64,000 nucleotides of DNA from NCBI RefSeq assembly GCF_003334405.1, contig NZ_QOWM01000002.1. The stretch is one strand, 5' to 3'. This document shows positions 13,171-64,000 of this stretch, in pieces (position 1 is the first letter of the stretch; every line of letters starts with the position of its first letter). The notes under the pieces were generated by a model. That model did no database searches. It had not been told where the DNA came from and saw only the letters and a list, made by a program, of their open reading frames with translations. Source of the stretch: Escherichia coli. GTDB taxonomy: Bacteria; Pseudomonadota; Gammaproteobacteria; Enterobacterales; Enterobacteriaceae. The position numbers were made by a program, and so were the translations under genes.

Positions 13171-13215
13171 TGGGAGACCAGAAACAAAAAAACACCCGTT
13201 AGGGTGTTCAATAAT

Positions 13216-13292
<77 letters not shown>

Positions 13293-13500
13293 TCCGTGGA
13301 TGCGCACTATACTCCGCTCGCGTTTTCATGCAACCTTTTTTTTACCCCGATCACGGATTTGGCATGATTTTGAACAAAAACAAATCACTAAAGCCTATTT
13401 TTTGTGCAAAATTTGCGTCAGGGAGAGGCTGCTCATTTCATTAAACGCGGCGGTTTGTTATCTTCGTTGCGCCTTATTTTTTAACCTGAAGAAGAGAACA

Positions 13501-14633: not shown

Positions 14634-14816
14634 AGGGTGAGGGGTAACCTCACATCCTGATTATTGACTAAGTGCGCGTTGTTCATGCCGGATGCGGCGT
14701 GAACGCCTTATCCGGCCTACAAATCATGCAAATCCAAAATATTGCAGGAGTTATGTAGGCCTGATAAGCGTAGCGCATCAGGCATTTATGCGTTTAGGGT
14801 GAGGGATAACCTCGCC
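14634..14816. repeat. BIME: two inverted REP elements flanked by 21-bp direct repeats
   Basis: REP gccggatgcggcgtgaacgccttatccggcctac (14688..14720) and inverted REP gtaggcctgataagcgtagcgcatcaggc (14755..14783). Flanking repeats agggtgaggggtaacctcaca (14634..14654) and agggtgagggataacctcgcc (14796..14816). Confidence 0.7.
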
Positions 14817-16137: not shown

Positions 16138-17342
16138 TAATCCACCAATAATTCCAGCGCGCGGTCAACGGCATTCACCAGCGCATCCACATCACTCTTT
16201 GTATTATATGGCGCAAAAGAGGCGCGCAGTGTGCCGGTTACGCCTAATTCTGCCAGTAGCGGCTGAGCGCAATGCTGCCCGGCCCGCAGGGCAATACCGT
16301 ACTCCGCCAGCAGCGTCACCATATCGCTATGATGAACGCCAGCAAAATCAAAGGCCAGCAGGCTGGAATCCTGGCAGCGGAATGAACGAAAGCCGGGACG
16401 TTTCGCCAGCGCATCTTCCGCCAGCGTTGCTAAGCTACGGCTCCAGCTTTCGGCCTGGTTGATATCGTAATCTGCCAGCCATTCCAGCGCCGCGCTTAAT
16501 CCTATGACACCAGCGACATTTGGCGTTCCAGCTTCCAGTTTCCACGGCGCAGATTGAGTCGTGAAGCCGTCAAAACTCACTTCGTGAACCATTTTGCCGC
16601 CGCCCAGCCAGGGCGACATCGCCTCCAGCAGTTCTGATTTACCATACAGCACGCCGATACCTGTCGGGCCATACAGTTTGTGACCTGAAAAAGCATAGAA
16701 ATCAATATCCAGTTGCTGAACATCCGCGGGGAAATGCACTGCCCCCTGAGCACCATCAACCATCACCACCATCCCGGCTGAATGAGCAAAGGTAATCGCT
16801 CGCGCCAGATCCGGGCAACCGCCAGTAACGTTCGACATCTGACCCAACGCCAGAATCCGACTACGGGGAGTAATCAGTTCTGGCAACAAATCGACATCCG
16901 GCAGTCGCTGCGCATTAAGCGGCAATTTCACCACTTTGGCTCCAGTTTGTTGGGCGACCATCAGCCAGGGGACGAGGTTGGCGTGGTGTTCTGCCACGCT
17001 GACAATAATCTCATCGCCCGGTTGCAGACGCGGACGCGCATAGCATTGTGCCACCATGTTGATGGATTCAGTGGTGCCGCGCGTCCAGACGATAGTTTTA
17101 TCATCCGGTGCATTCAGTAATTGCGCCACTTTCTCTCGTGCAGCTTCATAACGCGCGGTCAGGCGTTGGGCTTCGGCAAACTGGCTGCGATGGACGTTTC
17201 CGGCGCTCAGACTGTAAAACTGTTGGGTGGCTTCAACCACGGCTTCAGGTTTAAGCGCGGTCGCGGCGCTGTCGAGATAGACGCCCGCATCCTGTAGTGC
17301 GGGAAACTGGGCGCGAAACTGCGCGGGATTAAAAACGTTCAT
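16137..17342 (-). CDS. csdA: Cysteine sulfinate desulfinase / cysteine desulfurase CsdA
   Basis: ORF 16137..17378. Start placed at [16 protein letters not shown], giving 401 aa. Class V aminotransferase with an SGHK pyridoxal-phosphate lysine motif. Confidence 0.9.
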
Positions 17343-17533
17343 GGTACTCCTCGGCTTGATGCACCGATCGTGACGCAAAATTCACTTTGATACAAGGAGA
17401 GTGCTAACCATCAGAATTATCTGGATATCCTGGCGAAGCCGCGTAAGTAACATATGCTGAATAGTGTTAGGCGTTAATTTTAGCCTGTTAATCAATACTA
17501 TTAAGATTTATTAATCGCTTTAAGGAGAAGATG

Positions 17534-17761
17534 ATGAAAAAGACTGCCGCAATTATTTCTGCCTGTATGCTGACTTTTGCCCTGAGCGCCTGTTCCGGTT
17601 CGAACTATGTGATGCACACCAATGACGGACGTACCATCGTCTCTGACGGCAAACCACAGACTGATAACGATACCGGTATGATTTCGTATAAAGACGCTAA
17701 TGGCAACAAACAGCAGATCAACCGTACTGACGTGAAAGAGATGGTCGAACTGGATCAGTAA
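17534..17761 (+). CDS. ygdI: Small lipoprotein YgdI (DUF903)
   Basis: 75-76-aa ORF with signal peptide and lipobox ([20 protein letters not shown]). Start could be 17531 or 17534. Confidence 0.8.
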
Positions 17762-17777
17762 TTCGCGATCGCAAGGT

Positions 17778-17983
17778 AAAAAAAAGCACCGCAATTAGGC
17801 GGTGCTACATTAATCACTATGGACAGACAGGGTAAATGTACAGGAAGTGAAAAAAGGTAGCTTTGCTACCATGGTCTGAATCGCAGACCAATTGCAAACA
17901 CAACAACACAACATCACAACCGTAAGCCAAAAGTTCACCAGAACACGCATTCCGATAAAACTTTTCGTTCCGGCTCAGGAAGT
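17778..17983 (-). ncRNA. gcvB: GcvB small regulatory RNA
   Basis: The reverse complement matches the gcvB sequence as I recall it, from 5' ACTTCCTGAGCCGGAACG to the terminator hairpin (gcaccgcctaattgcggtgc) and U-tract. It is divergent from gcvA, with a TATAGT -10 just upstream on the minus strand. Confidence 0.85.
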
Positions 17984-18111
17984 GCCGCCACTATAGGTAT
18001 TTGCTGGTAGAAGCTCAACGGACAATTTATAATGGCTCAGATTAAAAAAACTAATAGGTTACATAGTGTGATCTAATTGTTAAATTCATTTAACATCAAA
18101 GTTTAATAGCC

Positions 18112-19029
18112 ATGTCTAAACGATTACCACCGCTAAATGCCTTACGAGTTTTTGATGCCGCAGCACGCCATTTAAGTTTCACTCGCGCAGCAGAAGAGCT
18201 TTTTGTGACCCAAGCCGCAGTAAGTCATCAAATCAAGTCTCTTGAGGATTTTTTGGGGCTAAAACTGTTCCGCCGCCGTAATCGTTCACTCCTGCTGACC
18301 GAGGAAGGGCAAAGCTATTTCCTCGATATCAAAGAGATATTTTCGCAATTAACCGAAGCGACGCGTAAACTCCAGGCCCGTAGCGCCAAGGGGGCGTTGA
18401 CGGTCAGTTTACTCCCCAGTTTCGCCATTCATTGGTTGGTTCCGCGACTTTCCAGCTTTAATTCAGCTTATCCGGGAATTGACGTTCGAATCCAGGCGGT
18501 TGATCGTCAGGAAGATAAGCTGGCGGATGATGTTGATGTGGCGATATTTTATGGTCGGGGCAACTGGCCGGGGCTACGGGTGGAAAAACTGTACGCCGAA
18601 TATTTATTGCCGGTGTGTTCGCCGCTACTGCTGACTGGCGAAAAACCCTTGAAGACACCGGAAGATCTGGCTAAACATACGTTATTACATGATGCTTCGC
18701 GCCGTGACTGGCAGACATATACCCGACAGTTGGGGTTAAATCATATCAACGTTCAGCAAGGGCCAATTTTTAGCCATAGCGCCATGGTGCTGCAAGCGGC
18801 TATCCACGGGCAGGGAGTGGCGCTGGCAAATAACGTGATGGCGCAATCTGAAATCGAGGCCGGACGTCTTGTTTGCCCGTTTAATGATGTTCTGGTCAGT
18901 AAAAATGCTTTTTATCTGGTTTGTCATGACAGTCAGGCAGAACTGGGTAAAATAGCCGCCTTTCGCCAATGGATCCTGGCGAAAGCCGCTGCTGAACAAG
19001 AAAAATTCCGCTTTCGTTATGAACAATAA
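18112..19029 (+). CDS. gcvA: LysR-family glycine cleavage system activator GcvA
   Basis: 305-aa ORF with N-terminal helix-turn-helix (LNALRVFDAAARHLSFTRAAEELFVTQAAVSHQIKSLE). Confidence 0.92.
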   Translation: MSKRLPPLNALRVFDAAARHLSFTRAAEELFVTQAAVSHQIKSLEDFLGLKLFRRRNRSLLLTEEGQSYFLDIKEIFSQLTEATRKLQARSAKGALTVSLLPSFAIHWLVPRLSSFNSAYPGIDVRIQAVDRQEDKLADDVDVAIFYGRGNWPGLRVEKLYAEYLLPVCSPLLLTGEKPLKTPEDLAKHTLLHDASRRDWQTYTRQLGLNHINVQQGPIFSHSAMVLQAAIHGQGVALANNVMAQSEIEAGRLVCPFNDVLVSKNAFYLVCHDSQAELGKIAAFRQWILAKAAAEQEKFRFRYEQ

Positions 19030-19047
19030 TTTACGTAGGGTACGACC

Positions 19048-19443
19048 ATGACCAGCCGTTTTATGCTGATTTTCGCCGCCATTAGCGGCTTCATTTTTGT
19101 GGCTCTGGGCGCTTTTGGCGCGCATGTGTTAAGTAAAACCATGGGGGCCGTTGAGATGGGCTGGATCCAGACCGGCCTCGAATACCAGGCGTTTCATACG
19201 CTGGCGATCTTAGGTCTGGCGGTGGCAATGCAGCGTCGCATCAGTATCTGGTTTTACTGGAGTAGCGTTTTCCTCGCGTTAGGCACGGTGTTGTTCAGCG
19301 GCAGCCTTTATTGCCTGGCGCTGTCCCATCTGCGTTTGTGGGCGTTTGTCACTCCGGTTGGCGGCGTGAGCTTCCTCGCGGGCTGGGCGTTAATGTTAGT
19401 TGGTGCTATCCGTTTAAAGCGCAAGGGCGTAAGTCATGAATAA
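19048..19443 (+). CDS. ygdD: Inner membrane protein YgdD (DUF423)
   Basis: 131-aa hydrophobic ORF. Overlaps the rlmM start. Confidence 0.82.
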
Positions 19444-36144: not shown

Positions 36145-36520
36145 TTCTATCTTCGTCGACAGGGAGTCAGACAACGAAGTGAACATCAGGATGATGACAC
36201 TTCTGCAGGACACACCAGGATGGTGTTTCAGGGAAAGGCTTCTGGATGAAGCGAAGAGGATGACGCAGGACGCGTTAAAGGACACCTCCAGGATGGAGAA
36301 TGAGAACCGGTCAGGATGATTCGGTGGGTCAGGAAGGCCAGGGACACTTCAGGATGAAGTATCACATCGGGGTGGTGTGAGCAGGAAGCAATAGTTCAGG
36401 ATGAACGATTGGCCGCAAGGCCAGAGGAAAAGTTGTCAAGGATGAGCAGGGAGCAACAAAAGTAGCTGGAATGCTGCGAAACGAACCGGGAGCGCTGTGA
36501 ATACAGTGCTCCCTTTTTTT
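36145..36520 (+). ncRNA. csrB: CsrB, CsrA-sequestering small RNA
   Basis: About 370 nt with roughly 20 reiterated GGA motifs (caggatg, aggaca, cagggag). Ends in a terminator hairpin gggagcgctg..cagtgctccc plus ttttttt (36488..36520). The 5' end is approximate. Confidence 0.85.
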
Positions 36521-36565
36521 ATTCCTGCTATCCTTCGCGGCAGTTTTTCTTATTGAGGTTGCTTT

Positions 36566-38144: not shown

Positions 38145-38578
38145 TATGTTCAGCGAGCGGTAAATGTCGTTTTAGCGGTGCTGAATCGAATCTTTTCAGG
38201 CAAATGCCAGTAAAAACTGCTTCATAGCGCGGATTTTTACTGGCGTTTGCCTGGAGTCAAGCGATCCATTTCATACTCTTCTTTATTTCTTCGTTTTAAC
38301 CCTTCCTTTCTTGTTCTTGTTTTCATTTCCGTGAAGTGGATTCCACCGTCCAGGGCTAATGCCAAAATCGGGCCTCATTGAACGCATTAATGTTGTGTTG
38401 TTGCACGGTGAGCCGCTATGGCGCGCTTTTTATACTGCTATTGCCAGATATAAACACGCGCCGTATTCGGCGAACGACCTATAAAAACGGCAAAAAACAC
38501 CCTACGTCACCTCTGATTTCCTGGCGATGTCGCAGTCCAGAGTGAGCGTGGCTAACGCGAATTTTCAGGAGTGCAACA

Positions 38579-56271: not shown

Positions 56272-56544
56272 GTGTTCCCCGCGCCAGCGGGGATAAACCG
56301 GCAAAAACCGGGCAATCGCAAAAAGGCGTAATGTGTTCCCCGCGCCAGCGGGGATAAACCTGTGTTTGCGGCATTAACGCTCACCAGCATTTCGTGTTCC
56401 CCGCGCCAGCGGGGATAAACCGAGCAGATACACGGCTTTGTATTCCGTGCGCCCGTGTTCCCCGCGCCAGCGGGGATAAACCGGAGCCTGACGAGACTAC
56501 TGAGGCCGTTCTGTCGAGTTCCCCGCGCCAGCGGGGATAAACCA
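56272..56544 (+). CRISPR. Type I-E CRISPR array, 5 repeats of 29 nt and 4 spacers of 32 nt (61-bp period)
   Basis: Repeats start at 56272, 56333, 56394, 56455 and 56516, with consensus gtgttccccgcgccagcggggataaaccg. The last repeat reads gagttccccgcgccagcggggataaacca. Spacers: 56301..56332 gcaaaaaccgggcaatcgcaaaaaggcgtaat; 56362..56393 gtgtttgcggcattaacgctcaccagcatttc; 56423..56454 agcagatacacggctttgtattccgtgcgccc; 56484..56515 gagcctgacgagactactgaggccgttctgtc. Confidence 0.95.
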
Positions 56545-57182: not shown

Positions 57183-58439
57183 TTACGCATTCGACCAGCT
57201 CTGGATCGAATCCACATTCCCCAATTCCCCATGCATCACTTCATACGATTTTTTCAGGATCACATCAGTATGTTTGGTTAGGTCTTTGAAAATGCCTTTA
57301 TTCATCGCGTCGTAGCGTTTGGCATTGCTCTCAATCGGTATAAAGATATCTTTCACGCGAACCATGTTATCGACAGCCGTTGCGTAATCCGGGTATAGCC
57401 CCAGACCTACCGCTGTATTAATCGCTGCCCCCAGGCTTGCACAACCGTTAATGGCGTTACGTCGTGCCGGAAGGTTGAACACGTCGGCAAAAATCTGCAT
57501 AAACAGATCGCTGTTCGAACCGCCGCCAGTAATGATCACATGCTTCGCAAAGTGATTCATTTCATTACACATATTGTCGTAATTGTTCTTCAGCGTCAGC
57601 GCCACGCTTTCCAGTATCGAACGATATATCCATGCGTAATCCATGCTGGAATCAAAGCCGATCATAATCCCGCGTTTGTACGGTTCCCACGGATTGGTCA
57701 GCCAGTCCAGCACCGTCATCAGACCATTACAGCCTGGCGGCACACAAGAAGCTTTTTTGTTGAGTAAATCTTCCGGTGAAAGATCCTGCGCCCTGGCATC
57801 CTGAATTAACGACTCGCCTAGCATGTCGCGCAGCCAGCTCACCGTCCACATGCCTTTGCGAATACCGTAACCTTCATACAGCAATGTTTGCGGAATAGAA
57901 GACATAATCGGCCAGTACGCTACTGGATCTTTCGGCAGTGCTTTGCCGTTCATCATCAATGCGATGTAAGTGCCAAGAGAAATTACCGCCGTTTCATCAT
58001 CCAGTAATCCGGCCCCCAGAGCTTCTACCGGTTTATCACTGGTGGTACAAACAACCGGCAGTCCTGCCGGGAAATGTGTCGCCAGTGCGGCTTGTGGTGT
58101 GATATGTCCGAGGACGGTGCCAGGCATTTGCACATCAAACAGCATATGACGGGGGATATTAAACTTATCCATTACCGCAGCATCTTCGCTCCATGCCCAG
58201 CTCTTATAATCCACCGGCCACTGACCAAAATAGTTGGCGATATTGTCTTTAAACTCGCCGGTTAACCGCCCGCCGGAAAGATTTTTGCTGCCGGGGATTT
58301 CAGCGCGTTCCAGTAACAAAACGGATAAACCCGCTCGCGCGCAGCGTAACGCGCAAGCGGTGCCTGCAATACCGGCACCAATAATAATAATGTCGCAGTC
58401 GTCTTCCATGTCATGCCCCAGATATCCAGAACACAACAC
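57183..58439 (-). CDS. Hybrid ORF: FAD-binding Rossmann N-terminus (about 50 aa) fused to the C-terminal ~365 aa of an FGGY sugar kinase; probable deletion-fusion product
   Basis: 418-aa ORF. The N-terminus DIIIIGAGIAGTACALRCARAGLSVLLLER is a classic GxGxxG dinucleotide-binding fold. The rest is FGGY-like (VISLGTYIALM ... HVIITGGGSNSDLFMQIFADVFNLPARR) and lacks the N-terminal ATP-binding motif of that family. Alternative start at the ATG at 58409. Confidence 0.6.
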   Translation of the reverse strand: MLCSGYLGHDMEDDCDIIIIGAGIAGTACALRCARAGLSVLLLERAEIPGSKNLSGGRLTGEFKDNIANYFGQWPVDYKSWAWSEDAAVMDKFNIPRHMLFDVQMPGTVLGHITPQAALATHFPAGLPVVCTTSDKPVEALGAGLLDDETAVISLGTYIALMMNGKALPKDPVAYWPIMSSIPQTLLYEGYGIRKGMWTVSWLRDMLGESLIQDARAQDLSPEDLLNKKASCVPPGCNGLMTVLDWLTNPWEPYKRGIMIGFDSSMDYAWIYRSILESVALTLKNNYDNMCNEMNHFAKHVIITGGGSNSDLFMQIFADVFNLPARRNAINGCASLGAAINTAVGLGLYPDYATAVDNMVRVKDIFIPIESNAKRYDAMNKGIFKDLTKHTDVILKKSYEVMHGELGNVDSIQSWSNA

Positions 58440-58486
58440 CCTAACATAGCGTTACTTAAGGGAAATTGACCGCCGACACACTCTTA

Positions 58487-58852
58487 TCATTCGCCGCGAT
58501 AGATACAACCTGCGGTGCAGGTTTCTTTTACCATCACCGCACTTAACAGCGGCACAACGGGTTTAACCTGATCCCAAATCCATTTTGCTAAAACCTCGCT
58601 GGTTGGGTTTTCCAGACCTGGAATATCATTGAGATAATGGTGATCGAGGCGCTCGTAGGTTGGTTTAAACGCCGCTTTTAGTTCAGCGAAATCGATAATC
58701 CAGCCCGTATGCGGATCGACTTCCCCGGTAATTTCCAGTCGCACCATAAAGGAATGCCCGTGCAGGCGACCACATTTATGCCCTTCCGGGACGTGTGGTA
58801 AGCGGTGAGCGGCTTCGAAGGTGAAATCTTTAAATAACGTGGTGGACATCAT
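58487..58852 (-). CDS. queD: 6-carboxy-5,6,7,8-tetrahydropterin synthase QueD
   Basis: ORF 58487..58936. Start placed at [18 protein letters not shown], giving 121 aa, with the CGRLHGHSF zinc-binding motif. Confidence 0.88.
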
Positions 58853-59167
58853 AATTTCTCTACAGGACGATAAAACCGCCGTAGAGTACCGGAAAGGCTG
58901 TTTTTTCGCATTATCTAAAACGACTTTGTTGCGCAAAATCGCTGATTTATCTTAATGATTGGCTAAATTCATTTGTTTTTCATTAGGTTGGTTAATCTAT
59001 TTTGTTGTTAAAGACTATTGCTAAAACAGGTTAGTCGATTTGGTTATTAGTTATCGCTATCCCGTCTTTAATCCACACCGTTTGCCCCGTTAACCTTACC
59101 TTCTCTTCTGTTTTATGGGCGCTGACAGGGCGCAGAAACAGCTTTGCTTACTGGAACATAACGACGC

Positions 59168-60967
59168 ATGACGACACAGGTCCCACCTTCCGCGTTGCTT
59201 CCGTTGAACCCGGAGCAACTGGCACGCCTTCAGGCGGCCACGACCGATTTAACTCCCACCCAGCTTGCCTGGGTTTCTGGCTATTTCTGGGGCGTACTCA
59301 ATCAGCAGCCTGCTGCGCTTGCAGCGACGCCAGCGCCAGCCGCAGAAATGCCGGGTATAACTATTATCTCCGCCTCGCAAACCGGCAATGCGCGCCGGGT
59401 TGCTGAAGCATTACGTGATGATTTATTAGCAGCAAAACTGAACGTTAAGCTGGTGAACGCGGGCGACTATAAATTCAAACAAATCGCCAGCGAAAAACTG
59501 CTCATCGTAGTGACGTCAACGCAAGGGGAAGGGGAACCGCCGGAAGAAGCCGTCGCGCTGCATAAGTTCCTGTTCTCCAAAAAAGCGCCAAAGCTGGAAA
59601 ACACCGCGTTTGCCGTGTTTAGCCTCGGCGATAGCTCTTATGAATTTTTCTGCCAGTCCGGGAAAGATTTCGACAGCAAGCTGGCGGAACTGGGTGGTGA
59701 ACGCCTGCTCGACCGTGTCGATGCCGATGTTGAATACCAGGCTGCTGCCAGCGAGTGGCGCGCCCGCGTGGTTGATGCGCTTAAATCGCGTGCGCCTGTC
59801 GCGGCACCTTCGCAATCCGTCGCTACTGGCGCGGTAAATGAAATCCACACCAGCCCGTACAGCAAAGACGCGCCGCTGGTGGCTAGCCTCTCTGTTAACC
59901 AGAAAATTACCGGGCGTAACTCTGAAAAAGACGTTCGCCATATCGAAATTGACTTAGGTGACTCGGGCCTGCGTTACCAGCCGGGTGACGCGCTGGGCGT
60001 CTGGTATCAGAACGATCCGGCACTGGTGAAAGAACTTGTCGAACTGCTGTGGCTGAAAGGCGATGAACCTGTCACCGTCGAGGGCAAAACGTTGCCTCTG
60101 AACGAAGCGCTACAGTGGCACTTCGAACTGACCGTCAACACCGCCAACATTGTTGAGAATTACGCCACGCTTACCCGCAGTGAAACACTGCTGCCGCTGG
60201 TGGGCGATAAAGCGAAGTTACAGCATTACGCCGCGACGACGCCGATTGTTGACATGGTGCGTTTCTCCCCGGCACAGCTTGATGCCGAAGCGCTAATTAA
60301 TCTGCTGCGCCCGCTGACGCCGCGTCTCTATTCCATTGCCTCCTCGCAGGCGGAAGTCGAGAACGAAGTACACGTCACCGTTGGTGTGGTGCGTTACGAC
60401 GTGGAAGGCCGCGCCCGTGCCGGTGGTGCCTCCAGCTTCCTCGCTGACCGCGTGGAAGAAGAGGGCGAAGTCCGCGTATTTATCGAACATAACGATAACT
60501 TCCGCCTGCCAGCCAATCCAGAAACCCCGGTGATTATGATTGGCCCAGGCACCGGCATCGCGCCGTTCCGCGCCTTTATGCAGCAACGTGCTGCCGATGA
60601 AGCGCCGGGAAAAAACTGGCTGTTCTTTGGCAACCCGCACTTTACGGAAGATTTCCTCTACCAGGTGGAGTGGCAGCGCTACGTCAAAGAGGGTGTGCTG
60701 ACGCGGATCGATCTCGCCTGGTCGCGCGACCAAAAAGAAAAAGTTTACGTACAAGACAAACTGCGCGAACAGGGCGCGGAGCTGTGGCGCTGGATCAATG
60801 ACGGTGCCCACATTTATGTCTGCGGTGACGCTAATCGCATGGCGAAAGACGTTGAGCAGGCACTTCTGGAAGTGATTGCCGAATTTGGTGGCATGGACAC
60901 CGAAGCGGCGGATGAATTTTTAAGTGAGCTGCGCGTAGAGCGCCGTTATCAGCGAGATGTCTACTAA
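59168..60967 (+). CDS. cysJ: Sulfite reductase [NADPH] flavoprotein alpha subunit
   Basis: 599-aa ORF with flavodoxin-like and FAD/NADPH-binding regions. Its stop overlaps the cysI start (TAATG). Confidence 0.93.
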
Positions 60968-62679
60968 TGAGCGAAAAACATCCAGGGCCTTTAGTGGTCG
61001 AAGGAAAACTGACAGACGCCGAGCGCATGAAGCTTGAAAGCAACTACCTGCGCGGCACCATTGCGGAAGATTTAAACGACGGTCTGACCGGCGGCTTTAA
61101 GGGCGACAACTTCCTGCTGATCCGCTTCCACGGCATGTATCAGCAGGATGACCGCGACATCCGCGCCGAACGTGCTGAACAGAAGCTGGAGCCGCGCCAC
61201 GCGATGCTGTTGCGCTGCCGTCTGCCGGGTGGGGTGATTACCACTAAACAGTGGCAGGCGATAGACAAATTTGCCGGTGAAAACACCATCTATGGCAGCA
61301 TTCGCCTGACCAACCGCCAGACGTTTCAGTTCCACGGCATTCTGAAAAAGAACGTCAAACCGGTGCACCAGATGCTGCACTCGGTTGGTCTTGATGCGCT
61401 GGCGACCGCTAACGACATGAACCGTAACGTACTCTGCACCTCGAACCCTTACGAGTCGCAGCTACACGCGGAAGCGTACGAGTGGGCGAAGAAGATTTCT
61501 GAGCATCTGCTGCCGCGTACCCGCGCGTATGCGGAGATCTGGCTCGACCAGGAAAAAGTCGCCACTACTGATGAAGAACCGATCCTCGGCCAGACCTACC
61601 TGCCGCGTAAATTCAAAACCACGGTAGTGATCCCGCCACAGAACGATATCGATCTGCACGCCAACGACATGAACTTCGTGGCGATCGCCGAAAACGGCAA
61701 GCTGGTGGGCTTTAACCTGTTGGTGGGCGGTGGGCTTTCCATCGAACACGGCAACAAGAAAACCTACGCCCGCACCGCGAGTGAGTTTGGCTATCTGCCG
61801 CTGGAGCATACGCTGGCGGTGGCCGAAGCCGTCGTGACAACTCAGCGTGACTGGGGTAACCGAACCGATCGTAAAAATGCCAAAACCAAATACACGCTGG
61901 AGCGCGTGGGGGTTGAGACGTTTAAAGCGGAAGTGGAGCGTCGCGCGGGGATCAAATTTGAACCGATCCGTCCATATGAGTTCACCGGACGAGGCGATCG
62001 TATTGGCTGGGTTAAGGGCATTGATGATAACTGGCACCTGACGCTGTTTATCGAAAATGGTCGCATCCTTGATTATCCGGCGCGTCCGCTGAAAACCGGC
62101 CTGCTGGAGATCGCGAAGATCCACAAAGGCGATTTCCGCATTACGGCGAACCAGAATCTGATCATCGCCGGTGTACCGGAAAGCGAGAAAGCGAAGATCG
62201 AGAAGATCGCCAAAGAGAGCGGGTTAATGAATGCCGTCACGCCGCAGCGTGAAAACTCAATGGCCTGCGTGTCATTCCCGACTTGCCCGCTGGCGATGGC
62301 GGAAGCGGAGCGTTTCCTGCCGTCTTTTATCGACAACATCGATAATTTAATGGCGAAACATGGTGTCAGCGATGAGCATATCGTGATGCGTGTAACAGGC
62401 TGCCCGAACGGTTGTGGTCGCGCGATGCTGGCGGAAGTGGGCCTGGTGGGTAAAGCGCCGGGTCGCTACAACCTGCATCTTGGCGGCAACCGCATTGGGA
62501 CACGTATCCCTCGGATGTATAAAGAAAACATCACCGAGCCGGAAATCCTGGCGTCGCTTGATGAACTGATAGGGCGCTGGGCGAAAGAGCGCGAAGCGGG
62601 TGAAGGCTTCGGCGACTTTACGGTGCGTGCGGGCATCATTCGCCCGGTGCTCGATCCGGCGCGCGATTTGTGGGATTAA
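60967..62679 (+). CDS. cysI: Sulfite reductase [NADPH] hemoprotein beta subunit
   Basis: 570-aa ORF with a siroheme/4Fe-4S cysteine region ([16 protein letters not shown] ... TGCPNGCGR). Confidence 0.93.
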
Positions 62680-62696
62680 CCATCAGCCCGGTCTTG

Positions 62697-62731
62697 TAGG
62701 CCTGATAAGACGCGTGAGCGTCGCATCAGGC
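62697..62731. repeat. REP element between cysI and cysH
   Basis: gtaggcctgataagacgcgtgagcgtcgcatcaggc is REP-like. Confidence 0.55.
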
Positions 62732-62752
62732 AAGGCAAACAGTGAGGAATCT

Positions 62753-63487
62753 ATGTCCAAACTCGATCTAAACGCCCTGAACGAACTGCCGAAGGTAGAT
62801 CGCATTCTGGCGCTGGCGGAAACTAACGCCCAACTGGAAAAACTGGACGCTGAAGGCCGCGTAGCCTGGGCGCTGGATAATCTGCCCGGTGAATATGTGC
62901 TTTCTTCCAGCTTCGGCATTCAGGCGGCGGTGAGCCTGCATCTGGTGAATCAGATTCGGCCGGATATTCCAGTGATCCTCACCGATACCGGTTATCTGTT
63001 TCCGGAAACCTACCGCTTTATTGACGAGTTAACGGACAAACTCAAGCTCAACCTGAAAGTGTACCGTGCTACCGAAAGCGCCGCCTGGCAGGAAGCACGC
63101 TACGGCAAACTGTGGGAACAGGGCGTTGAAGGCATTGAAAAGTACAATGACATCAACAAAGTCGAACCGATGAACCGGGCGCTGAAAGAACTTAACGCGC
63201 AAACCTGGTTTGCTGGCCTGCGCCGCGAACAATCCGGCAGCCGCGCCAATTTACCGGTGCTGGCAATTCAGCGTGGCGTATTTAAAGTGCTGCCGATTAT
63301 CGACTGGGATAACCGAACTATTTATCAGTACCTGCAAAAACATGGCCTGAAATATCACCCATTATGGGATGAAGGATATTTATCGGTCGGTGATACCCAT
63401 ACAACCCGTAAATGGGAACCTGGCATGTCGGAAGAAGAAACACGTTTCTTTGGCTTAAAAAGGGAATGTGGATTGCACGAAGGGTAA
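62753..63487 (+). CDS. cysH: Phosphoadenosine phosphosulfate (PAPS) reductase
   Basis: ORF 62600..63487. Start placed at [42 protein letters not shown], giving 244 aa, with a C-terminal ECGLH motif. Confidence 0.92.
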
Positions 63488-63751
63488 ATATTGCCGGATA
63501 AATTAAACGCCTCTGTCAGAAATGATGGGGGCGTTTTTATTTTGCGAGCAGTATTCCTGATTTTAAACGTGAACGCCGCTGGAAGAATTATCAGGTATAG
63601 AATGGCGTCGGGTGCTTGAGGCTGTCTGGCGTTAAGCATTCGCGAGGTTCCAGATGGACAAAAGCCCCAGGCGATATTTCTATCAACCTGAGGCTTACGT
63701 TCGAACCCAAACAATTCGAATGTTAGTCTCTTCTTTGCAGGGAGGCAAGAC

Positions 63752-63904
63752 ATGCTGACAAAATATGCCCTTGTGGCAATCATAGTGCTGTGTTTTACAG
63801 TACTGGGATTCACGCTGATGGTAGGCGACTCGTTGTGTGAGTTGAGTATCAGAGAACGTGGTATGGAGTTTAAGGCAGTTCTCGCTTACGAATCGAAGAA
63901 GTAG
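63752..63904 (+). CDS. Hok/Gef-family type I toxin (50 aa), HokE-like
   Basis: Not in the ORF track because it is under 60 aa. I translated it by hand: [51 protein letters not shown] ggagg SD sits 7-11 nt upstream. It has one transmembrane helix and the conserved SLCE...R and AYES motifs of the Hok family. Confidence 0.7.
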
Positions 63905-64000
63905 CCACCACGCGGGGGTAAAACCCATAAGCGCTAACTTAAGGGTTGAACCATCTGAAGAATGCGACGCCTCGGTGCCTCGTTAAGACGATGCCTCGCG

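Follow-up and report, generated by a model that had tools for sequence, protein, structure and literature searches.

The gcvB Locus

Between the convergent lipoprotein gene ygdI and the divergent regulator gene gcvA lies, almost certainly, the gene for the small regulatory RNA GcvB, together with its own promoter hexamers, three seed regions and a 3' terminator hairpin (Table 1). The window, that is, the whole stretch of Escherichia coli DNA analyzed here, is 64,000 nt long, and it was scanned in its entirety with Rfam 15 at gathering thresholds. The GcvB family model, RF00022, matches the minus strand from 17983 to 17778 over model positions 1-204 of 204, and the match is not truncated. The covariance-model scan gave this match a score of 199.0 bits (E = 1.1e-46), compared with a gathering score of 42. 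An earlier note, made from the sequence alone, had placed gcvB at 17778-17983 on the minus strand and had proposed such a scan as a check. The full-length match agrees with that placement to the base. The note had also proposed a check of the G/U-rich R1 region, and the R1 string GTTGTGATGTTGTGTTGTTGTGTTTG is found once in the gene without a mismatch.

The gene is identical at 206 of 206 bases to gcvB (b4443) of E. coli K-12 MG1655. In NC_000913.3, positions 2942696..2942901 are annotated as the ncRNA gcvB, "small regulatory RNA GcvB," with gcvA on one side and ygdI on the other. The identity includes the surrounding 2.2 kb, as window positions 16979..19179 are the reverse complement of K-12 2941500..2943700 with 0 mismatches. 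Based on this evidence, the probability that the minus strand of 17778..17983 is E. coli gcvB, the gene for the 206-nt Hfq-dependent small regulatory RNA GcvB, is about 98%. Refutation of this identity is very unlikely because the copy is 100% identical to the K-12 gene, for which experiments on the transcript and on target repression were reported positive. The earlier interpretation of the locus as the GcvB sRNA is therefore supported.

TABLE 1. Features of the gcvB locus, with positions in the window and, for the RNA, nucleotide numbers counted from the 5' end.
Feature	Position	Strand	Basis and remarks
gcvB gene, 206-nt GcvB small RNA	17778..17983	-	5' end 17983, 3' end 17778; RF00022 match and identity with K-12
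ygdI (lipoprotein), convergent neighbor	17534..17761	+	ORF list; K-12 annotation b2809
gcvA (LysR-type regulator, 305 aa), divergent neighbor	18112..19029	+	ORF list; K-12 annotation b2808
-10 hexamer TATAGT	17990..17995	-	-12..-7; no variation among 43 aligned intergenic regions of many genera
-35 hexamer TTGAGC	18013..18018	-	-35..-30; 17-nt spacer to the -10 hexamer
Upstream control block ATTAG-T7-AAT-CTGAGCCATTATAAATTGTCCG	18019..18055	-	-36..-72; conserved
Stem-loop 1 (SL1)	17925..17975	-	nt 9-59; Rfam consensus structure, MFE and centroid folds
R1, G/U-rich main seed	17895..17920	-	nt 64-89; exact match; 96% G+U over nt 63-88
R1 core seed AUGUUGUG	17907..17914	-	nt 70-77; mean P(unpaired) 0.67
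Stem-loop 2 (SL2)	17872..17890	-	nt 94-112; Rfam structure, MFE fold
Stem-loop 3 (SL3) and U6, internal terminator-like hairpin with U-rich stretch	17850..17870	-	nt 114-134; terminator scan
R2 CACUUCCUGUACAU	17836..17849	-	nt 135-148
R3 CCUGUCUGUCC, third seed, loop of stem-loop 4 (SL4)	17821..17831	-	nt 153-163
Stem-loop 5 (SL5), Rho-independent terminator and U8 tail	17778..17806	-	8-bp stem with 6 G-C pairs, 6-nt loop

The arrangement of the neighboring genes is typical of GcvB. In the ORF list, ygdI appears as a frame of 76 aa (17531..17761), and the table gives the equivalent of the K-12 annotation. The earlier note had described a terminator hairpin that abuts the ygdI stop. The hairpin is present, but it does not abut the stop codon (17759-17761), which is separated from the last GcvB base by 16 nt. 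The divergence from gcvA that the note described is confirmed by the strands of the two genes, and 128 nt separate the gcvB 5' end from the gcvA ATG. In other species, gcvA is adjacent and divergent in all 93 of the loci that hold both the gcvB 5' end and the gcvA N-terminus, with a spacer of 101-296 nt (median 128). A position next to gcvA with divergent transcription is given in the literature as characteristic of GcvB, a non-coding sRNA of about 200 nt (PMC9299463, PMC5900567).

Transcription Signals

A consensus promoter scan identified the gcvB promoter, which is conserved and of the sigma-70 type, on the minus strand as TTGAGC-17-TATAGT, ending 7 nt upstream of base 17983. Its -10 hexamer is the TATAGT named in the earlier note. 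In an alignment of 43 gcvB-gcvA spacers, the string CCTATAGT, which holds the -10 hexamer, is invariant. The -35 hexamer is somewhat more variable across genera: TTGA is near-invariant, and position 5 is usually G (TTGAG/TTGAT). Immediately upstream, within the block at -36..-72, ATTAG and the T-run are invariant in the 43 sequences, and CATTATAA and TTGTCC are near-invariant. This block is probably the GcvA binding region. We take CTAAT, the complement of ATTAG, to be the GcvA recognition motif, and the invariant ATTAG would fit a GcvA site here. Footprinting work from the Stauffer laboratory is reportedly the basis for assigning this block to GcvA binding and the gcvA promoter. A TATAAT on the plus strand (18028..18033) lies inside the same block, and we infer that it would suit the divergent gcvA promoter.

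At the other end of the gene, a terminator scan found the 3' hairpin AGCACCGC-CTAATT-GCGGTGCT followed by a U-run, and a second terminator-like hairpin on the RNA strand, GGTAGC-AAA-GCTACC followed by U6, which corresponds to SL3. Urbanowski et al. are said to have described, in 2000, a shorter transcript (~130 nt) in E. coli, and such a transcript would fit the internal site. Judged by sequence, the locus appears to carry its own promoter and Rho-independent terminator for a primary transcript of ~200 nt.

RNA Architecture and Seed Regions

The predicted fold of GcvB is more stable than expected from its composition, with an MFE of -62.1 kcal/mol (z = -3.6) that is better than all 200 shuffles. 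SL1, SL2, SL3 and the terminator of the MFE fold agree with the Rfam consensus. SL1 carries one of the two sites at which the RNA SroC pairs (PMC9299463). The main seed, R1, is unpaired in both the Rfam structure and the centroid fold, and its string occurs exactly only once in the window, while 0 of 100 shuffles matched it.

The remaining seeds lie in the 3' half of the molecule. The ensemble gives R2 a P(unpaired) of 0.36, that is, mostly paired, and the Rfam consensus leaves most of R2 unpaired. The role described for R2 is repression of cycA (PMC9299463). R3 is predicted to be mostly accessible, with a mean P(unpaired) of 0.61, and it has been linked to control of phoP and lrp and to SroC, for which it is a pairing site (PMC3536696, PMC9299463). 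The RNA ends in a U-rich 3' tail with a P(unpaired) of 0.99, and a U6 run is also present internally. A separate observation concerns the octamer ACUUCCUG, which occurs twice in GcvB, at nt 1-8 (17976..17983) and at nt 136-143 inside R2. Both copies are conserved, and a single such repeat in 206 nt could be due to chance.

Homologs and Conservation of Structure

Within the species, gcvB is carried by all complete genomes. The 206-nt query was found in 5,426 of 5,426 complete E. coli genomes, with at least 99% identity in 5,390, and a 651-nt query comprising the spacer and flanks had a similar distribution among E. coli genomes. The gene of one strain is interrupted. In E. coli OkiPb01677 (NZ_AP042483.1, 3137300..3140100), an IS4-family element with an annotated ISVsa5 transposase lies inside gcvB. 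The insertion falls between positions 3137985 and 3139315 of that record, after about GcvB nt 125, and the junctions carry a duplication of ~9 nt of gcvB. It is a natural disruption that parts R1 from R2, R3 and the terminator.

For the homolog search, a species-representative genome collection was scanned with the two conserved halves of R1, which yielded 120 loci. By blastn, 109 of these are GcvB homologs. Genera represented include Citrobacter, Enterobacter, Yersinia, Serratia, Photorhabdus, Xenorhabdus and Proteus, and also Providencia, Morganella, Edwardsiella, Erwinia, Rahnella and Hafnia. The remaining 11 loci (Oscillospiraceae, Bacteroidota and others) have no other similarity to GcvB and were discarded as chance matches.

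The structure was tested on 48 Enterobacterales homologs that are pairwise less than 96% identical. These were aligned with MAFFT, and the Rfam structure was projected onto the alignment columns. Standard pairs fill 82.7% of the cells of the Rfam structure, and this value falls to 34-50% in controls with the 3' partners displaced by 1-3 columns. Compensation is seen in 15 pairs, where 74 cells are changed on both sides, and the observed covariation score was reached by 0 of 500 shuffles. Specifically, the base of SL1 is invariant, and 6 of 6 pairs of its distal helix show compensatory changes. SL3 is 86-92% paired and also contains compensatory changes. The terminator stem is 97% paired across the homologs, with 6 of its 8 pairs invariant. 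Overall, the five-stem-loop consensus is supported by covariation, with weaker support for SL2 and SL4, which are 65 and 71% paired, respectively, on this structure-blind alignment. These low values largely reflect alignment shifts; for SL2, the cause is a one-column offset of the stem between groups of the family. RNAalifold, applied to the same MAFFT alignment, recovered only the SL1 base and the terminator among the Rfam helices and added a different pairing, among invariant columns of the R2 region, for which no covariation is seen. Its result was uninformative, so the projected Rfam structure was used instead.

In primary sequence, the R1 core, R2, R3 and the terminator stem show little or no variation among the 48 homologs: every position of R2 is either invariant or conserved to 90% or more, and R3 is invariant. 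The block that runs from R2 through R3 (nt 131-172; 17812..17853, minus strand) is the most conserved part of GcvB and is more uniform than R1. Nearly every position of these ~40 nt is invariant or at least 90% conserved among the Enterobacterales homologs. In the literature, few targets are attributed to this block, along with the SroC site. A further function, for instance as a protein-binding platform or through a larger R2/R3 regulon that is masked by SroC, is conceivable but rather unlikely, and, if true, it would bear on GcvB as a family and not on this particular window.

Alternative Readings of the Locus

The locus could in principle be read in other ways. One is that the region codes for a small protein, either alone or as a dual-function RNA. 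The earlier note had described the six-frame track as unmarked here. Its statement that no credible ORF is present stands, but the list itself is not empty, as three ORFs overlap the gene, two on the minus strand (46 and 37 aa) and one on the plus strand (34 aa). The 46-aa ORF (17810..17950, minus strand) starts with ATG inside the transcript, on the RNA strand, and is kept by several close relatives. Among the 48 homologs, however, the start codon is present at the corresponding column in 25, the frame is maintained in 13, and the frame is open without an internal stop in 12. The start codon lies in the SL1 loop, where indels are not multiples of three. Moreover, the longest sense ORF varies widely in position and length across homologs, from 17 to 58 codons, and conservation tracks the RNA stems and seeds and not codons. 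Because the 46-aa ORF is not conserved, the three overlapping ORFs are not credible and the small-protein reading, which is very improbable, was rejected. GcvB is non-coding, with no conserved reading frame or peptide.

It is equally improbable that the conserved sequence is purely a DNA-level element for control of gcvA, or for 3' processing or termination of ygdI, with no RNA product of its own. The hairpin at 17785..17806 does lie just downstream of the convergent ygdI, and the gcvA side of the spacer holds conserved blocks that resemble regulator-binding sites. However, conservation reaches 200 nt past any plausible gcvA operator, a conserved promoter is directed into the region, and compensatory base-pair changes are the signature of an RNA and not of a DNA site. 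Nor is the ygdI side in favor, since many loci have GcvB but no detectable ygdI homolog in the fetched DNA. On the plus strand, the hairpin is followed by ACATTAAT, with no T-run, and the terminator scan lists no plus-strand site there. A bidirectional terminator common to gcvB and ygdI, which was also considered, is unsupported for these same reasons. Lastly, a G/T-rich, low-complexity stretch might resemble R1 by chance, and the R1 pattern alone does match unrelated genomes, as in the 11 discarded loci described above. Here, however, the match spans all model positions, including the five stem-loops, R2, R3 and the terminator, with E = 1e-46, and a chance resemblance can be dismissed. The reading as gcvB is the one that accounts for the locus.

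Regulation by GcvB

The physiological role of this copy may be outlined from studies of the K-12 gene. GcvB is transcribed divergently from gcvA (PMC9299463), and its transcription is controlled by GcvA and GcvR and induced by high glycine (PMC9299463, PMC5900567). When glycine is plentiful, GcvA, the product of the divergent neighbor, would activate transcription of gcvB, and when glycine is scarce, GcvR would block this activation. For this copy, both the activation by GcvA and glycine and the repression by GcvR are expectations taken from the literature. Together with Hfq, the R1 core would then pair with C/A-rich sequences, located at the ribosome-binding site or upstream of it, in dozens of mRNAs that encode biosynthetic enzymes and transporters of amino acids and peptides. 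Such pairing would block translation and promote decay of the mRNA. R2 and R3 would act on a smaller set of targets, namely cycA, phoP, lrp and gdhA. GcvB itself may be degraded by RNase E when SroC, a sponge RNA derived from gltI, pairs with SL1 and R3.

Three seeds have been described, and most targets pair with the G/U-rich R1; R2 is highly conserved and known mainly for cycA, while R3 in SL4 acts on phoP, lrp and others (PMC9299463, PMC3536696, PMC4474525). SroC originates from the gltI 3' UTR, pairs with SL1 and SL4 and triggers degradation by RNase E (PMC9299463, PMC3536696, PMC4474525). The motif on the target side is CACAACAT, which is complementary to the R1 core. GcvB blocks translation by pairing at the ribosome-binding site or close to it, and C/A-rich sites farther upstream are translational enhancers that GcvB masks (PMC5900567). 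Binding of Hfq and repression of targets by seed pairing were reported for the identical K-12 sequence (PMC9299463, PMC3536696). All of the sequence elements of this mechanism are present and intact in the window copy. Transcription, Hfq binding and target repression in the source strain would be expected from its identity with K-12.

The window itself offers no lead to new targets. The complement of gcvB aside, the window has a single exact copy of CACAACAT, which lies in the yqcA-gudP spacer (38390..38397, minus strand), antisense to the gudP leader. Related 8-mers lie near 58430 on the plus strand. The single copy is at chance level, as about two occurrences of any 8-mer can be expected in the 128 kb that the two strands make up. 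The paper on the GcvB regulon makes no mention of sdaC, sdaB, argA or csdA.

Other Features of the Window

The window is about 99.9% identical to K-12 MG1655 and collinear with it to about 58,270, and the strain is not MG1655. Collinearity ends inside ygcE, at about 58,268. The remainder, ~58270..64000, matches the cysJ-cysI-cysH region of other E. coli strains, indicating that the strain is without the ygc gene block of MG1655. As a result of this absence, the cysJIH region falls within the window, as does a sok-like antitoxin RNA at its very end (63610..63767, plus strand; Rfam RF01794, 113 bits). In the ygcE-queE spacer, at 56393..56543, two K-12 BLAST pieces overlap by 151 nt in the window compared with only 29 nt in K-12, pointing to a repeat that differs in copy number, by about 120 nt.

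Other RNA genes and matches are also present. CsrB, a well-known regulatory RNA that is likewise unmarked by an ORF track, was found at full length (36164..36523, plus strand; Rfam RF00018, 380 bits) and is equivalent to K-12 csrB, b4408. There is one initiator tRNA-Met gene (13216..13292, minus strand), whereas MG1655 has three in tandem (metZ, metW and metV). The alignment to the metV side ends at 13294 and that to the metZ side begins at 13212, and the window is 220 nt shorter than K-12 at this site. When the 601-nt stretch around this tRNA gene was used as a query, 226 of 5,426 genomes matched it in one place at a coverage of at least 80%, and the top genomes among the matches listed have two copies. 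The single copy is either a real copy-number variant or a repeat that was collapsed in assembly. Lastly, the mltA-tcdA spacer contains a match to Rfam ES036 (CssrF) at 14720..14762 on the plus strand (46.5 bits; gathering score, 37.6), and REP-like palindromes lie on either side of it (gccggatgcggcg... / ...gtaggcctgataagcgtagcgcatcaggc).

Annotation and Significance

GcvB has been studied since 2000. The identification made here is correct and already known, and there is nothing new in this copy; with a sequence identical to the reference, it brings no new biology. Its value is practical, as a reading of the raw sequence recognized an unannotated sRNA gene with exact coordinates. Among the E. 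coli records from RefSeq/PGAP, none of the eight matches listed for the 206-nt query (8 of 8) has a feature under gcvB, and the record summaries for the longer spacer query give only ygdI and gcvA. Of the records inspected, the curated NC_000913.3 is the only one that annotates gcvB. Both the ORF-based tracks and the RefSeq/PGAP annotation inspected miss this gene, which encodes a major regulator of amino-acid metabolism.

Comparison With Known Systems

The closest relative of this copy is GcvB of E. coli K-12, which is the same in its bases, flanking ygdI and gcvA genes, promoter, both terminator-like hairpins, R1, R2 and R3. There is no difference inside the gene, although the host strain itself is other than MG1655. 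All of the GcvB family features that can be assessed from sequence are found here, and the copy shows no difference from the type example.

GcvB of Salmonella enterica and other Enterobacterales has the same order of elements, SL1, R1, SL2, SL3, R2, SL4 with R3, and SL5, as well as the same divergent gcvA and the same promoter hexamers. Between E. coli and Salmonella, 10 nt of GcvB differ, and structure and function are common to both (PMC9299463). Members of the family differ in R1, which occurs in two lengths (columns 88-108 of the 48-homolog alignment). A version 8 nt shorter, with a pattern match of 20 nt, occurs in Yersinia, Serratia, Photorhabdus, Proteus, Providencia, Edwardsiella and others. 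In contrast, Escherichia, Citrobacter, Enterobacter and their relatives possess an extra GTTGTGTT-type repeat unit in R1, giving a pattern match of 28 nt. The distal part of SL1 and the loops also differ between GcvB of the Yersinia/Serratia/Photorhabdus type and that of E. coli.

Other multi-target sRNAs that depend on Hfq and combine a single-stranded seed with a Rho-independent terminator, RybB and MicA among them, have an accessible, conserved seed and a GC-rich hairpin that leads into a U-rich 3' tail, and they repress at or near ribosome-binding sites. GcvB has this general design in common with them. One target is also common, as phoP is acted on by both MicA and GcvB (PMC3536696). However, GcvB is distinct from these sRNAs in its greater length and in the internal, not 5'-terminal, location of its main seed, and it possesses three separate seeds and a dedicated sponge, SroC.
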